A DNA stretch of 64,000 nucleotides from a phage, in sequence record PZ534512.1. One strand, written 5' to 3'. Made by a program: the position numbers and the translations under genes. Position 1 is the stretch's first letter. Every line of letters starts with the position of its first letter. The notes beneath the pieces were generated by a model. The model had not been told where the DNA came from and did not search any database. It saw nothing but the letters and a program-made list of their open reading frames with translations. Below are positions 2,804 to 31,759 of the stretch, in pieces.

Positions 2804-3277
2804 ATGAAATCATATACTCAATTTTTAAATGAAGCGGTGTTAAATGAAGCATCTAGCACCGAAATTCAAGCTGTCGCAAAAGCAGCCATTGCAGCGGGTA
2901 AATATTCTTATAAAGATGCTTCTGATGAATCGCGATTCCAGTTCGCACGCGACATGAAAGCGGAAGGATTTACGGGAAATGCAGTTAGTATGGCCTGGAA
3001 AAGTTTAGTTGCTACTGGCGCTGCTTTTGCAAAGGCTTCGGGTAAACCTGCTCCTAAAGCAGATCCTAAAGTCGCACAAGAGAAAAATATTGTTAAAGGA
3101 ATTATCTCCAAATATGAAGCTATCCTTAAAGAGCTTTTAGTAATCAAAACTGAAGGCCAAAAACTAGCTCGTGCTTATAGTTTCAAAGATAACCCACATG
3201 CTCACTCTCTTGAGTATGTTGAAGACATTCAAAAAATTATTAAAGACCGCATTTGGTCTGCTAAACAAATCAAATAA
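2804..3277 (+). CDS. internal-protein-like capsid-targeted protein (157 aa)
   Basis: N-terminus MKSYTQFLNE/AVLNE fits T4 CTS pattern with L-x-E protease sites; AGGAAA RBS; own late promoter. Confidence 0.6.
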   Translation: MKSYTQFLNEAVLNEASSTEIQAVAKAAIAAGKYSYKDASDESRFQFARDMKAEGFTGNAVSMAWKSLVATGAAFAKASGKPAPKADPKVAQEKNIVKGIISKYEAILKELLVIKTEGQKLARAYSFKDNPHAHSLEYVEDIQKIIKDRIWSAKQIK

Positions 3278-3285
3278 CATTCTTA

Positions 3286-3314
3286 GCCCTAGCCGAAAGG
3301 TTGGGGCTTTTTGG
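3286..3314 (+). terminator. hairpin terminator, near-duplicate of 2726-2754
   Basis: agccctagcc-gaaa-ggttggggct then ttttt. Confidence 0.6.
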
Positions 3315-3445
3315 TATCTAGGCCTTTCCAGGCCTCTCTAGACATCATTTAGTTTCTACCCTTTATAATATATTATCCTATCCTTTGATTTCCCCTCCCT
3401 GCCCTAGAATTCCTCAAAACTTTTTAAAAATTTTTTCACAAAACG

Positions 3446-3475
3446 GTTTACATCCTTGTCCTTCCATGGTACTAT
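3446..3475 (+). promoter_or_regulatory. T4-type early promoter with conserved leader
   Basis: ttttcacaaaacgGTTTAC-N18-TACTAT then acaactatcaactactgatacag. Confidence 0.7.
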
Positions 3476-3518
3476 ACAACTATCAACTACTGATACAGAA
3501 AACAACTTGGAGAATGAA

Positions 3519-3782
3519 ATGGATAATTACGGCGAACTGTTCAACTTCTTTATGAAATGTGTTTCAGAAGATTTTGGTCGTACAGTGAATGATATTAAAG
3601 TTATCGGTCCTGATCATCCGATGTTTGAAACTTATGCAGTAATGGGTAATGAAGATGGTCAGTGGTATACTGTAAAGGTTGTAATTAATATGTTCACGGC
3701 AGAAGGTTATGTTAAACTGTCTTCTAAAGTTTACCATGATAACGACGAAATCGCAGAAGAATATTTCAATAATATGAAATAA
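3519..3782 (+). CDS. hypothetical protein (87 aa)
   Basis: ORF track start 3456 lies inside the promoter; ATG 3519 has GGAG RBS. Confidence 0.5.
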   Translation: MDNYGELFNFFMKCVSEDFGRTVNDIKVIGPDHPMFETYAVMGNEDGQWYTVKVVINMFTAEGYVKLSSKVYHDNDEIAEEYFNNMK

Positions 3783-3850
3783 TTGTGTACAAACACCAAG
3801 GATGGTGTTATTATAGACTTATCAAAACAAATACAGAAACGGAGAAATAA

Positions 3851-4015
3851 ATGACTACTTTAATTATTTGGTTCGACGAAAATGAAGAAACATACTGCGT
3901 GAACATTGGCGAAAGCCCAATGCCAGAATTTGAATCTTCAGATAAAAACTCGGTTGTATCTTGGGCTGAAGGTTATAAAGCAGCAAAAGGCGATGTTGAA
4001 ATAGTTTACATCTAA
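3851..4015 (+). CDS. small hypothetical protein (54 aa)
   Basis: GGAGAAATAA RBS then ATG; below ORF-track length cutoff. Confidence 0.4.
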   Translation: MTTLIIWFDENEETYCVNIGESPMPEFESSDKNSVVSWAEGYKAAKGDVEIVYI

Positions 4016-4059
4016 GTATGAAGGCGTTACTATAGACTTATCATCACAAGGAAAACATT

Positions 4060-4395
4060 ATGAAACGTAACTTTAGTAAAGCTTTTTGTAATAGAAATGA
4101 TTATCCTGAAGAGCTTTTTGAATCTAAGGAATTTAAAGAGTTTAACGAACGTTCTCAAAACATGCCTGTACAGTGGGTATTGGATTATGCTAACCGTATC
4201 TTTGAAGGCGTACGTTTCGTTGGCCCCGATGATGAAGCTCCTTATTTTAAAAAGGCTTGGGAACTCGCCAACCAAGCATATATCAATGCTTTAGAATCTT
4301 CTAAAGGTACTGACGATGATTTTATTTTATTGGCTATCAATGATGCCGTTGTCGAGGCCATCGACGCCTTTATCGACGAGCTAGACGAAGAATAA
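4060..4395 (+). CDS. acidic hypothetical protein (111 aa)
   Basis: AGGAAAA RBS; coding-like composition. Confidence 0.5.
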   Translation: MKRNFSKAFCNRNDYPEELFESKEFKEFNERSQNMPVQWVLDYANRIFEGVRFVGPDDEAPYFKKAWELANQAYINALESSKGTDDDFILLAINDAVVEAIDAFIDELDEE

Positions 4396-4452: not shown

Positions 4453-5046
4453 ATGAACACACTGAAGAAAATTGTTGAGTTTATTCGCACTAAACTTGGT
4501 TCTGCTATGGCTAAAAATCTATCTGTTGAAGAACAGTATACTGCTGCGGCAGCAAAACTACTTGATAAGATTAAAGATCTAAAAACTGCTTCTGTTAAAT
4601 CTATTAATGAAGAAAAGCGTATTCGTGAACTTATTGTCGAAAAGAATAAGCAGGCCGAATCAAAAGAGCGTGAAATTCGCAAGCTTCTTTCGGAAGGTCA
4701 AGATGTAACAATGCATGCTAAACTTGGTTTACTATATCGTCGAACAGCTGAGCAGTTGACTACTAAAGCTGATGGTTATGCTGAAATGCGAATTGAAATC
4801 GCCAAGAAAGTAGTTGAATTGGATGATGCTCGCCAAGAACTTGCAGTTAAATTGGAATATATCCGTGAAACTCGTGCAGCAAATGCCCTTGGAATTAGTA
4901 CTGCTGATGATGTAGTTGAAATTGCAGCACTGACTAAGGTTGATATTGAAGATACTCTTGCTCGAGTTGAAACCTTTAATGGCAATATTTCTGGGGTTGA
5001 AACTACCTCTGCCGATGTTCAGGAATATATTAATTCTCTGAAATAA
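4453..5046 (+). CDS. coiled-coil hypothetical protein (197 aa)
   Basis: AAGGAAATA RBS; followed by UUCG hairpin at 5052-5067. Confidence 0.55.
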
Positions 5047-5087
5047 TGATAAGGGGCTTCGGCCCCTATTACTTGGAGTAAGTAGGA

Positions 5088-5696
5088 ATGAAAATGCAAA
5101 GTGATTTCAATTCAATGTTTGAAGAGTTCCAAAGACAGGTTGATGTTCCAGATCAATTATTAAATGCTCTTAAACGTATGGCAGAAGGACGTAATTATTA
5201 TTGGGGTTCTTCATATGAAACTGATGAAAGTCTTTCTAGAGGATTTTCTAGAGGTAAAAAGTCTTTAATACGTCCTGGAATACTTATTAACAGTATTGAA
5301 TCAATTCATTTATTAACATGCGATTTTGACGTTGAATTTACTGATTTTGTTTCTCCTGAATGGACGGTCTGTTATTTAAACGACGATTATGATTATCTTG
5401 GCGTTTATAGTTTAAGTGATGCACGGTTTAAACGTAATTTACAAAAGTCAAATTTATTTTATATTGATACTACTGTAAAATTTCAGGGCAAGAAATATTT
5501 CTTTACTCTTATAGTTGATTCTGAAACGAAGCATGAAAATAAACGTATTCTTAGTAAAAAGAATATCTTAACTATTGTCGATGATCTTTTTGATAAATTC
5601 GTAGAAAATCCCAATTTTGAAAGCGATTTATTATTAGAAAAATTTGTGAAGGAATGCAGAGAATATGTCAAAGCCATCAATGTATCTTCCAAGTAA
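5088..5696 (+). CDS. hypothetical protein (202 aa), ECR-tail family
   Basis: AGGAATG RBS; C-terminus KFVKECREY. Confidence 0.5.
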   Translation: MKMQSDFNSMFEEFQRQVDVPDQLLNALKRMAEGRNYYWGSSYETDESLSRGFSRGKKSLIRPGILINSIESIHLLTCDFDVEFTDFVSPEWTVCYLNDDYDYLGVYSLSDARFKRNLQKSNLFYIDTTVKFQGKKYFFTLIVDSETKHENKRILSKKNILTIVDDLFDKFVENPNFESDLLLEKFVKECREYVKAINVSSK

Positions 5697-6057
5697 ACCG
5701 TTGAAGTATGAATTAAAGCGCCAGCTAATTTCTACTGATGTATTAATAGGTCCTGTAATAGCTGTATCATTTGTAATTCTACTGGGGGTTGGAATAGTTA
5801 TAGATGTTATGACTGATATTGAATCTAATATAATATTTGCGTCAACATTAATTCTTCCAATGATAGTTCCATTTTTATTAGTACCTGTAAATTGGGTAGG
5901 ATACTGGTATCAAGGAAGACATTATCGTAAACGCGTACGCGATTGGAAAGCTCAGTGTAAAAAGATTAAAAATGAACACCAGCTTAAACTTGCTGCGTAT
6001 GAATTTGATGAAATTATGAAATTTGTTAAGGAATCACGATGCAAAAGCCAAAACTAA
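5665..6057 (+). CDS. 2-TM membrane protein (130 aa), ECR-tail family
   Basis: overlaps upstream gene; two hydrophobic helices; C-terminus KFVKESRCK. Confidence 0.5.
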   Translation: MSKPSMYLPSKPLKYELKRQLISTDVLIGPVIAVSFVILLGVGIVIDVMTDIESNIIFASTLILPMIVPFLLVPVNWVGYWYQGRHYRKRVRDWKAQCKKIKNEHQLKLAAYEFDEIMKFVKESRCKSQN

Positions 6058-6413
6058 ATAAAGTTAAATATTCGTTTCCAGAGGCACTATTAATTCTTGC
6101 CGTATCAGCATTTGCAGCTCTTGCAGGTAGTCTTATTGGATTGTTAATTGACTGTTTTATTTTAAACATCCGTAGTAACGTCAGCGGTATAATAGATATA
6201 ATAGAAGTTTGGAGTGAACTTCATTATACTATAGCGATTTCATTATTTTCATTCTTTGGTACAATGTTATATTTTCATTATGATAATTTTAAAATAAATT
6301 GGCAAAGAAAAAAGGATTACAAAATACAATTAAAGGAATATAATAGCTACATGTCTTATATTGAAAAAGAATCAATGGAAGAGTTTGTGAGTGATTGTAG
6401 GAAAATTAAATGA
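6039..6413 (+). CDS. 2-TM membrane protein (124 aa), ECR-tail family
   Basis: overlapping start; C-terminus EFVSDCRKIK. Confidence 0.5.
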   Translation: MQKPKLNKVKYSFPEALLILAVSAFAALAGSLIGLLIDCFILNIRSNVSGIIDIIEVWSELHYTIAISLFSFFGTMLYFHYDNFKINWQRKKDYKIQLKEYNSYMSYIEKESMEEFVSDCRKIK

Positions 6414-6898
6414 TTTTAAAAACTCGCTGGTATGATTTAGATGATGGGGATGATGGCATTTCAGTTGATAGAGTTGACTGGAGTGGCTGTTCCGAAGATA
6501 TGAAAAAAATGTTAATTAGGGAGTTTAGAATGGGATATCAAGCAGCTAAGCCATCTACTATAACAGATGATAAGTTCGTATGTATTCATAATGGTCGCGC
6601 TAAGTTAACGAACGCTGATTGGTTCACAGATAAAATTATGATTCTGTGGTATATTATTAGTCTTCCTGTGACATCATTCGTATTTTACTTTTTTATAAAA
6701 AATCCAATGGACAGAATAGGAGATTGGATTCTTTTAACCATACTTGTTAATATTTTTACAGCAGCAATATTATCTGGGATATGGTGCGTGTTCATTGAAA
6801 TGCCATGGCGGTTACGCAGACAGCAAAAGATTTTTGATGAAAAGAAATATACTCAAAATTTAAATAACTTTATCACTGAATGCAGGAAATTAAAATGA
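6410..6898 (+). CDS. membrane protein (162 aa), ECR-tail family
   Basis: ATGA overlap; two TM helices; C-terminus NFITECRKLK. Confidence 0.5.
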   Translation: MILKTRWYDLDDGDDGISVDRVDWSGCSEDMKKMLIREFRMGYQAAKPSTITDDKFVCIHNGRAKLTNADWFTDKIMILWYIISLPVTSFVFYFFIKNPMDRIGDWILLTILVNIFTAAILSGIWCVFIEMPWRLRRQQKIFDEKKYTQNLNNFITECRKLK

Positions 6899-7335
6899 AA
6901 ACACTATCAGCTGGTATTATCTTTATGACAGAAGATAAAGATTTATTTATGGGACGAGTTACTGGTTCTCGTAAACCTGGATTGATGGCACATCGCTGGG
7001 ATATTCCAAAGGGGCGTGTAGAAAGTTCTGATTTAAGCGCATTAGATGCAGCACGAAGAGAATGCTTAGAAGAGACCGGTTTTAGCAATTATAATCCAGA
7101 CCTTCTAGAAGACCTAGGTGTATTTAAATATTCTAGTAATAAAGACCTACAGTTATTTTATTATACGATTCCAGTAGAGCATGAGATGTTTAGAAATTGC
7201 CATTGCGAGTCTTATTTTGAAAATAAAGATGGTGTTATGATTCCAGAAATGGACGCTTTTGCTCTTATTCCTCGTACTCAGTGGCAATATGTGATGGGTC
7301 CTTCACTTTACCGAATAATGAACAGCCTCTTTTAA
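6880..7335 (+). CDS. nudE: Nudix hydrolase NudE
   Basis: Nudix box RRECLEETGF; 151 aa; immediately upstream of e as in T4. Confidence 0.8.
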   Translation: MQEIKMKTLSAGIIFMTEDKDLFMGRVTGSRKPGLMAHRWDIPKGRVESSDLSALDAARRECLEETGFSNYNPDLLEDLGVFKYSSNKDLQLFYYTIPVEHEMFRNCHCESYFENKDGVMIPEMDAFALIPRTQWQYVMGPSLYRIMNSLF

Positions 7336-7866
<531 letters not shown>

Positions 7867-31464: not shown

Positions 31465-31759
31465 GATTGAAGTCTATGGAATTCCAGATGAAGTAGGTCG
31501 TTGTCCTGGATGTCAATCAGTTACAAAACTTCTAAAGGAGCTCAATGCTCCTTTTACTTTCTATAAAGTTCTTACAAATAATGGTAAGATTGAGTATGAT
31601 CGTCCACTGATTGTATCTCTTGCTAAACGCGCTGGATTCACATCTCTTAACATTCGTTATCCAGTCATTTTCATTAATGATTCTAGACAAAAGAACATTA
31701 AACACTTCAAAGAAACTCTCATTTCACTTGGATATGATAGAGATATCATAGAAGATTAA
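31433..31759 (+). CDS. nrdH: glutaredoxin-like NrdH-type redoxin
   Basis: CPGC motif in IEVYGIPDEVGRCPGCQSV; no in-frame ATG, so GTG 31433 proposed (TTG 31445 or ATT 31466 possible). Confidence 0.55.
   Translation, partial: LVEQNLNLKNKIEVYGIPDEVGRCPGCQSVTKLLKELNAPFTFYKVLTNNGKIEYDRPLIVSLAKRAGFTSLNIRYPVIFINDSRQKNIKHFKETLISLGYDRDIIED

Follow-up and report, generated by a model that had tools for sequence, protein, structure and literature searches.

A conserved C-terminal motif defines a module of overlapping genes in T4-like phages

Four consecutive, overlapping genes, e.5, e.4, e.3 and e.2, lie at positions 5088-6898 of a 64,000-nucleotide stretch of phage DNA (record PZ534512.1), hereafter called the window, and encode proteins that end in a similar short tail. 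Comparison with other phages shows that this tail is a real, conserved, protein-level motif and that it defines a gene module of T4-like phages whose members had not previously been linked. It is very probably a functional motif of the proteins themselves, carried by a module of related or linked genes. The window belongs to Tequatrovirus: over positions 5088-6898 it shares 99.3% identity with Escherichia phage vB-Eco-KMB22 and 90-97% with ~500 T4-like records, and Tequatrovirus records match the window genes at 92-100% DNA or protein identity. Gene names follow PHROG matches and the annotated T4, RB69 and L13089 records.

A tail specific to four genes

The four proteins terminate in EKFVKECREYVKAINVSSK (e.5), MKFVKESRCKSQN (e.4), EEFVSDCRKIK (e.3) and NNFITECRKLK (e.2), and all of them fit the pattern h-[E/N]-x-F-[I/V]-x-[D/E]-[C/S]-R, where h is a hydrophobic residue, placed 3-11 residues ahead of the stop codon. 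An earlier note on this DNA had described four successive overlapping open reading frames (ORFs) with such C-termini, and the ORFs, their translations and their overlaps all match that description. The [DE]-C-R-K signature under which the note had grouped them is exact in e.3 and e.2, whereas e.5 reads E-C-R-E and e.4 reads E-S-R-C-K. In a broader form, h-x-x-[FW]-[IV]-x-x-[C/hydrophobic]-[RK] placed no more than ~30 residues from the C-terminus of a protein from the e.6-to-nudE block, the motif is present in 4/4 of these window genes.

When the full 64 kb is translated in six frames, F-[VI]-x-[DE]-[CS]-R occurs five times against ~0.07 expected, and four of these occurrences are the C-termini in question. 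The fifth, at 31670, lies inside the unrelated NrdC and is a chance match. A position-specific scoring matrix (PSSM) of nine columns, trained solely on tails from other phage genera to avoid post-hoc bias, was scanned against the 30 C-terminal residues of each of 249 gene-like ORFs, which cover a whole T4-type genome composed of the window and the remainder of KMB22. The first four of the 249 ranks are taken by e.2 (26.2 bits), e.5 (24.6), e.3 (14.5) and e.4 (11.0), while the other ORFs average -5.8 bits (standard deviation 4.1) and do not exceed 7.5. A six-frame scan of the entire genome returned no further member.

The motif in other T4-like phages

The core F-[IV]-x-x-C-[RK] is found in orthologues and extra copies from 16/16 T4-like clades sampled, amounting to 58 proteins. 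Its carriers include RB69, the JS98 group, Kanagawavirus, Jiaodavirus, Karamvirus (with six members), Tulanevirus and Pseudotevenvirus, as well as a Winklervirus-type Serratia phage, a Yersinia phage, EcS1, an AS-yj-like Aeromonas phage and three metagenomic clades. Over these members, the consensus becomes h(-3)-[E/N/D](-2)-x-[F/W]-[I/V]-x-x-C-[R/K], numbered from the aromatic residue and located 0-25 residues from the end. The tail is kept where the remainder of the protein has diverged widely. The RB69 orthologues are 29-52% identical to the window proteins and retain FIMECREY, FVKEIRCK, FIKECRK and FITECRNLR, the latter two at the very end of the protein; RB69 also encodes an extra two-helix member, ORF133c, that ends in ENFIKECRGK. 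Orthologues of e.3 preserve the tail at 22-38% identity. Among the proteins found at the e.5 position in eight genera, which share 14-22% identity, only four columns per alignment are invariant (M1, N98, F186 and C190 in one; P21, D81, F186 and C190 in a second), and the tail window ranks as the most conserved stretch. The motif Cys gives way to V, I, M, S or A in ~10 members, the e.4 lineage having S, I or V. A genome carries from 2 to 6 tail-bearing genes, with only one in the phiAS4 and RB43 types over the region examined. The interval between e.3 and e.2 holds 0 to ~10 genes depending on the genus, which marks this region as plastic.

Selection on the protein and not on the junctions

The earlier note had allowed two origins at the nucleotide level. 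One is that overlapping ribosome-binding sites, together with translational coupling, produce the tail similarity as a by-product: an AAGGAA or AGGAAA sequence lies within the tail, 5-10 nt ahead of every downstream ATG, and in many coliphage members the K-E or E-E at +2/+3 follows a purine-rich Shine-Dalgarno (SD) sequence. The register of the SD nevertheless differs, since it occupies positions 3-4 of the motif (K-E codons) in e.5 and e.4 but positions 6-7 (R-K codons) in e.3 and e.2, and F, I/V, C and R lie outside SD coding. These residues are also written with many synonymous codons: among 46 family members, F is TTT in 30 and TTC in 14, C is TGC in 20 and TGT in 16, and R appears as AGA, AGG, CGT, CGC and CGA, which together span both of its codon families. 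Because synonymous codon change is free in the motif, selection acts on the protein. Furthermore, Kanagawa-, Jiaoda- and Karam-type phages have lost E(+3) while retaining F-[IV]-x-x-C-R, and in RB43/EBPL the motif lies 25 residues upstream of the stop codon, distant from any downstream start. Ribosome binding can thus account for no more than the K/E-E or R-K positions. The note would have given up its proposal had such constraint accounted for the whole similarity without conservation in orthologues; the motif is instead the best-conserved part of the orthologues, and the by-product explanation is largely refuted, with hardly any probability left to it. The other origin is that the tails are junction sequences reused by recombination, acting as conserved linkers for the shuffling and duplication of gene cassettes. 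The strong variation between genera in the content of the e.3-e.2 interval, the variable copy number, and the existence of natural chimeras and deletions between paralogues (P0096 and P0102, described below) are in keeping with such a process. Yet the longest exact word common to any two window tails is 8 nt, orthologous tails differ synonymously in their motif codons, and the junction of the P0096 chimera falls in the first transmembrane helix, outside the tail. Tail-mediated cassette shuffling is thus not supported, and this origin is very improbable.

Probable two-helix membrane paralogues and a soluble member

Hydropathy places two transmembrane (TM) helices and a basic C-terminal side in e.4 (net charge +8) and e.2 (net charge +5), while in e.3 the first helix is clear and the second segment weaker, with a Kyte-Doolittle value over 19 residues (KD19) of 1.37. 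No TM segment is found in e.5 or e.6 by the same means. The claim that the last three genes encode two-helix proteins with a basic tail hence holds for e.4 and e.2; for e.3 it stands with the reservation of the weaker second segment, the C-terminal charge having been computed for e.4 and e.2. From hydropathy and charge counts, these proteins would have a cytoplasmic N-terminus (N-in), two TM segments and a basic cytoplasmic C-terminal region, and e.4, e.3 and e.2 have a common layout of an N-in two-helix unit, a juxtamembrane stretch of W plus basic residues, and the tail. A MAFFT alignment of the three window proteins brings the juxtamembrane stretch and the tail into register. BLASTP finds zero links among the four tail-bearing proteins. 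Comparison of ortholog alignments with hhalign connects e.4 to e.3 at 85.5% over 114 columns (full length), e.3 to e.2 at 89% over 57 columns (TM2 and tail) and e.3 to RB69 ORF133c at 86%, scores that come from shallow alignments and can be inflated by TM composition.

It appears, on hydropathy and these weak profile matches, that e.4, e.3 and e.2 are probably distant paralogues with an N-in/C-in two-helix topology, and the extra copies in other phages would likewise be diverged two-helix paralogues. The profile match of e.5 to the other members, and to JS98-type e.5, is confined to the tail. As e.5 is soluble and shares the tail alone, the unit is a shared C-terminal module and not a single membrane-protein family. 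The idea of a diversified paralogue family of small membrane proteins is accordingly retained for e.4, e.3 and e.2, and abandoned for e.5, which, together with a few other small soluble proteins, carries the motif helix on an unrelated soluble domain and shares the module without a common fold.

A profile built from the three window paralogues and searched against 1.84 billion representatives returned eight proteins; the seven that were checked are T4-type, and P0101 (5923 aa, with no matched stretch) was left out. No bacterial relative that might hint at a function turned up in this search. Two public metagenome proteins have unusual architectures: P0096 is a natural chimera that joins e.4 residues 1-31 to e.2 from TM1 to the tail, and P0102 is an e.4 that lacks both TM helices.

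The conserved upstream neighbour e.6

A motif-bearing gene lies directly 3' of e.6 in 16/16 clades sampled, including phiAS4 and RB43, which have no membrane paralogue. With 43-100% identity over 1107 phage records, e.6 exceeds the tail proteins in both conservation and spread. Its near-invariant C-terminus, Y-[IL]-x-S-L-K at the stop codon, has a hydrophobic spacing like that of the tails, and a relaxed tail pattern is found in 5/249 gene tails, namely e.6, e.3, e.2, a 64-aa ORF and rIII. The AlphaFold2 model of e.6 has a predicted local distance difference test (pLDDT) score of 75 overall and >90 in its hairpin, and shows a helix at the N-terminus, then a long helical hairpin (25-80/86-145), followed by short helices and one helix at the C-terminus. 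A Foldseek search of this model against the PDB places Vipp1 in all of the top eight matches (probability 1.0, E 2e-3 to 1.5e-2), followed by archaeal CdvB2, while a PDB search with the e.6 sequence gives no match. The PspA/Vipp1-like assignment of e.6 is therefore a tentative lead at the level of the predicted fold and not a family membership.

Two observations stand beside these. One GenBank record bears the note 'shock protein A'. The rIII lysis-inhibition protein (KMB22 7234-7482, outside the window) ends in AVRHFVVTLK, with an aromatic-[IV]-x-x-L-K ending as in the EYINSLK of e.6.

A proposed docking helix and its possible partner

In the AlphaFold2 model of e.5 (pLDDT 57.6), a helix at 180-196 spans the motif. 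A helical wheel places L(-3), F, I/V and C within 40-140 degrees, a 100-degree arc, and R at its edge; the residues L/I(-3), F(0), I/V(+1) and C(+4) would thus occupy one face of a short alpha-helix, with the basic residue alongside. Since V, I, M, S or A can take the place of the Cys, its role would be one of packing and not of chemistry, and the idea of a thiol or metal site has been down-weighted on the same ground. A CaaX-type C-terminal cysteine box, with Cys fixed at -4, is ruled out: 0 to 25 residues follow the R/K of the motif and the distance from Cys to the end is variable.

We propose that the tail is an amphipathic helix, short and cytoplasmic, that packs by its conserved face on a protein surface; the membrane paralogues being N-in/C-in, their tail helix would face the cytoplasm. 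It would act as a docking peptide that binds all its carriers to one common partner, a prediction for which the chances appear about even. The likeliest partner would be the e.6 product, whose strongly conserved gene is always the immediate upstream neighbour. Adjacency in all clades sampled, far higher conservation and a similarly spaced C-terminus of its own make e.6 a candidate for this role, if a somewhat unlikely one. The membrane paralogues may serve as anchors and e.5 as a soluble adaptor in one membrane-associated complex, and the overlapping junctions with their embedded SD sequences may couple the translation of the set. Taken as a whole, a cytoplasmic docking helix whose common partner is most probably e.6 is the best explanation, which we hold tentatively as falling somewhat short of an even chance. 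A bolder version, which we consider improbable, is that T4-like phages encode in e.6 their own PspA/Vipp1/ESCRT-III-like membrane-remodelling protein along with variable dedicated receptors, the tails of which mimic the e.6 C-terminal helix. The receptors would be the two-helix anchors (e.4, e.3, e.2 and the extra copies) and the soluble adaptor e.5, all engaging e.6 through a C-terminal helix that resembles its Y-[IL]-x-S-L-K end. If true, e.6 and its receptors would form a viral membrane-repair or membrane-remodelling machine with built-in targeting, in the best-studied phage.

Other functions of the tail compete with docking to a common phage partner. The tail may be an amphipathic helix that targets the membrane surface, in the manner of MinD or FtsA and with no protein partner, bringing e.5 to the membrane and lying in its plane in the two-helix proteins. 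The form of the tail, a short helix at the C-terminus in which basic residues come after an L/F/I/C face, would suit this function, as would its presence on soluble proteins whose neighbours are all membrane proteins. We nonetheless regard it as unlikely: F and C are nearly invariant across genera at ~20% identity whereas lipid-binding helices tolerate wide substitution, acidic residues are frequent at -2 and +3, and the hydrophobic face has four residues and modest hydrophobic moments. The tails might instead bind one another in a helical bundle, building a hetero-oligomeric membrane complex in which the Cys residues could share a metal site or disulfide. The 2 to 6 co-translated copies per genome, the single conserved Cys of each tail and the long, charged, helix-prone stretch that precedes the motif speak for such a complex. 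It is made doubtful by the single tail-bearing gene of the phiAS4 and RB43 types, by Cys substitutions contrary to thiol chemistry, and by a conserved core that, at nine residues, is short for a bundle. It could also be that the tail docks on a host protein such as a protease, chaperone or membrane insertase, or is a degron, providing a handle for host takeover or turnover; these are accessory genes with no laboratory phenotype, their copy number differs among phages of different hosts, and the motif is at the extreme C-terminus in most members. Against this, the same motif in Aeromonas, Klebsiella, Serratia, Yersinia and Escherichia phages would require a highly conserved target, and profile searches matched no known degron or family, which leaves a host target with a low probability, similar to that of mutual binding or membrane targeting.

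Several results also count against the docking of the tails on e.6. The fold evidence for e.6 is split between Vipp1, as found by Foldseek, and BAR domains. PspA_IM30 (PF04012) of Pfam is unmatched at E<=1 in the window e.6 and 48 homologues, and hhalign gives e.6 and E. coli PspA a non-significant probability of 0.4%; on these two results, e.6 is ruled out as a sequence homologue of PspA. The synteny of e.6 with the tail genes could merely reflect common descent of the gene block. The amphipathicity of the tail is individually significant for e.5 alone. The e.4 tail, clear in the gene-tail scan (11.0 bits against a maximum of 7.5 elsewhere), scores 12.8 bits in the six-frame genome scan, near the noise of 12-13 bits. 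Finally, knock-down of T4 e.2 to e.6 had no fitness effect according to the tables of the 2025 CRISPRi-ART study. This, together with the interruption of e.2 in a T4 mutant-clone record, indicates that the module is dispensable in the laboratory.

Genes and junctions of the region

The features of the region are listed in Table 1. Each gene of the set overlaps the next, by 32 nt for e.5 and e.4 and by 19 nt for e.4 and e.3, and through an ATGA for e.3 and e.2 and again for e.2 and nudE at 6895. PHROG families 2607, 2604, 2330 and 2203 match e.5, e.4, e.3 and e.2 with E-values of 2.6e-107, 2.5e-69, 3.4e-61 and 3.4e-79, covering nearly the whole of each profile. None of e.6, e.5, e.4, e.3 and e.2 has a significant sequence match in Pfam, NCBIfam or the PDB.

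Table 1. Features of the e region in the window, and loci of other phages mentioned in the text (TM, transmembrane; SD, Shine-Dalgarno)
Feature	Position	Strand	Description
e.7	4060-4395		Upstream of e.6
e.6	4453-5046	+	197 aa; conserved upstream neighbour, candidate common partner; long helical-hairpin protein ending in VQEYINSLK
Hairpin in the e.6-e.5 gap	5052-5067	+	GGGGCTTCGGCCCC-type UUCG; no T-run on the + strand; putative stem-loop in the L13089 annotation
e.5	5088-5696	+	202 aa; soluble, tail-bearing; phrog_2607; no TM segment; PF26876 (precomputed) on homologues
e.5 tail core	5643-5660	+	F-V-K-E-C-R
e.4 SD (likely)	5649-5654	+	AAGGAA in the K-E codons of the e.5 tail; e.4 ATG at 5665
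e.4	5665-6057	+	130 aa; predicted N-in, two TM, basic cytoplasmic C-terminal region; phrog_2604; TM windows 31-49, 56-74
e.4 tail core	6022-6039	+	F-V-K-E-S-R, degenerate; Cys position is S, I or V in the e.4 lineage
e.3 SD	6028-6033	+	AAGGAA within the e.4 tail; e.3 ATG begins at 6039, inside the R-C codons
e.3	6039-6413	+	124 aa; membrane protein; phrog_2330; TM1 19-37 clear; second hydrophobic segment 61-79 weaker
e.3 tail core	6384-6401	+	F-V-S-D-C-R
e.2 SD	6399-6404	+	AGGAAA in the R-K codons of the e.3 tail; e.2 ATG at 6410
e.2	6410-6898	+	162 aa; acidic N-terminal domain of ~75 aa, two TM helices (78-96, 111-129), basic tail; phrog_2203
e.2 tail core	6869-6886	+	F-I-T-E-C-R
nudE SD	6884-6889	+	AGGAAA within the e.2 tail; nudE ATG at 6895
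nudE (e.1)	6895-7335	+	Nudix hydrolase (Pfam NUDIX, 8.7e-14); translationally coupled to e.2; tail motif absent
Lysozyme e	7372-7866		
~310-aa and 228-aa proteins, other phages	L003 2396-4415 region (RB69); L010 13006-14714; L019 4622-6929; L030 6599-9297		
Second tail family, other phages	RB69 ORF136c-139c (L003); L010 10862-12112; L019 2708-3782; L030; L032-L034		

The e.2 gene is intact (162 aa) in the window and most relatives. In the T4 record OL964735.1, from a mutant clone, a frameshift divides e.2 (3860-4347) into two ORFs, one of 102 aa that lacks the tail and one of 63 aa that has TM2 and the tail; T4 annotation tables, too, give the gene 309 nt. The same record labels e.4 and e.3 (3127-3863) as 'sulfurtransferase', a name that every profile search leaves unsupported and that has probably been carried over from a mis-annotation. 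Translation from the in-frame ATG at 6880, which lies within the E-C codons (GAATGC) of the tail of e.2, would extend NudE by MQEIK, the T4 annotation placing the start at ATG 6895 (window 6880-6897). A role in RNA processing or stability is conceivable for the stable GGGGC-UUCG-GCCCC hairpin between e.6 and e.5, which may otherwise belong to a promoter/stem-loop repeat (PeSL). Upstream, e.7 ends in VEAIDAFIDELDEE, with an h-x-x-F-I-x-x-L spacing as in the tails and an acidic end; it ranks 9/249 in the PSSM scan with 4.7 bits, and the likeness is probably due to chance.

The e region of other genera contains further families, which the window lacks. Two are conserved proteins of the block between e.3 and e.2, one of ~310 aa (Pfam DUF7277/DUF7275) and one of 228 aa that ends in EFPMEGW. 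Another is a second tandem family with a shared tail, made of 2-6 small soluble proteins (65-106 aa) with the ending W-[VFIQ]-x-S-S-x-x-C, such as WVSSSEMC, WVSSSYEC or WQPSSC, directly at the stop codon.

Significance

In the annotation tables of the 2025 CRISPRi-ART study, e.2 to e.6 appear as genes of unknown function, and neither the main text of that paper nor that of the HIDEN-SEQ paper mentions them. The literature searched, which did not extend to the Miller 2003 T4 review, contains no account of the shared tail or of a PspA-like protein in T4 or another phage, and nothing else relevant on the T4 e-region genes. The five consecutive genes can now be seen as one conserved module across the Straboviridae, in which a hub-like, conserved e.6 would be accompanied by fast-evolving partners that keep only a nine-residue C-terminal helix. 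T4 being the reference lytic phage, five of its orphan genes are thereby brought under one testable hypothesis. Should e.6 truly prove PspA/Vipp1-like, the module would be relevant to the way in which T-even phages maintain an energised inner membrane once their DNA has been injected and in the course of lysis inhibition. The tails also offer a clean case of a short linear motif kept over overlapping, SD-embedding junctions, and a caution against attributing such similarity to ribosome-binding constraint.

Comparison with known systems

Existing classifications keep the four proteins in separate families of unknown function (PHROG 2607, 2604, 2330 and 2203, and PF26876 on the e.5 homologues); the matches returned neither link them nor note the tail. 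PeSLs are intergenic promoter/stem-loop DNA repeats involved in modular shuffling in the plastic regions of T4-type phages. The e region is similarly hyperplastic and variable in gene content, but its tails are coding, conserved as protein and share <=8 nt.

Other parallels exist among proteins that act at membranes. The MIM helices of ESCRT-III bind MIT domains and, like the tails as proposed here, are short C-terminal amphipathic helices with a basic end that dock in membrane remodelling, and the C-terminus of e.6 resembles the tails in spacing. The consensus differs, and no MIT-like partner is known for the tails. PspA/IM30-family proteins are encoded beside small membrane partners, as PspA is with PspB and PspC, and LiaH with LiaI. 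The arrangement is comparable here: after the helical-hairpin e.6, and transcribed in the same direction, come small inner-membrane proteins that could recruit it through their cytoplasmic C-terminal helices. Unlike these systems, e.6 has no PspA sequence similarity, and the hhalign probability of the membrane proteins with PspC is 0.8%.

A further precedent comes from T4 itself, in which gp43, gp33 and gp55 dock on the sliding clamp gp45 through short hydrophobic C-terminal peptides. Those peptides have another sequence, their carriers are soluble proteins of DNA transactions, and the gp45 hub is known from experiment, whereas e.6 is a proposed hub. The principle would be the same in both cases: several otherwise unrelated proteins of one phage, each with a C-terminal peptide, converging on one hub.

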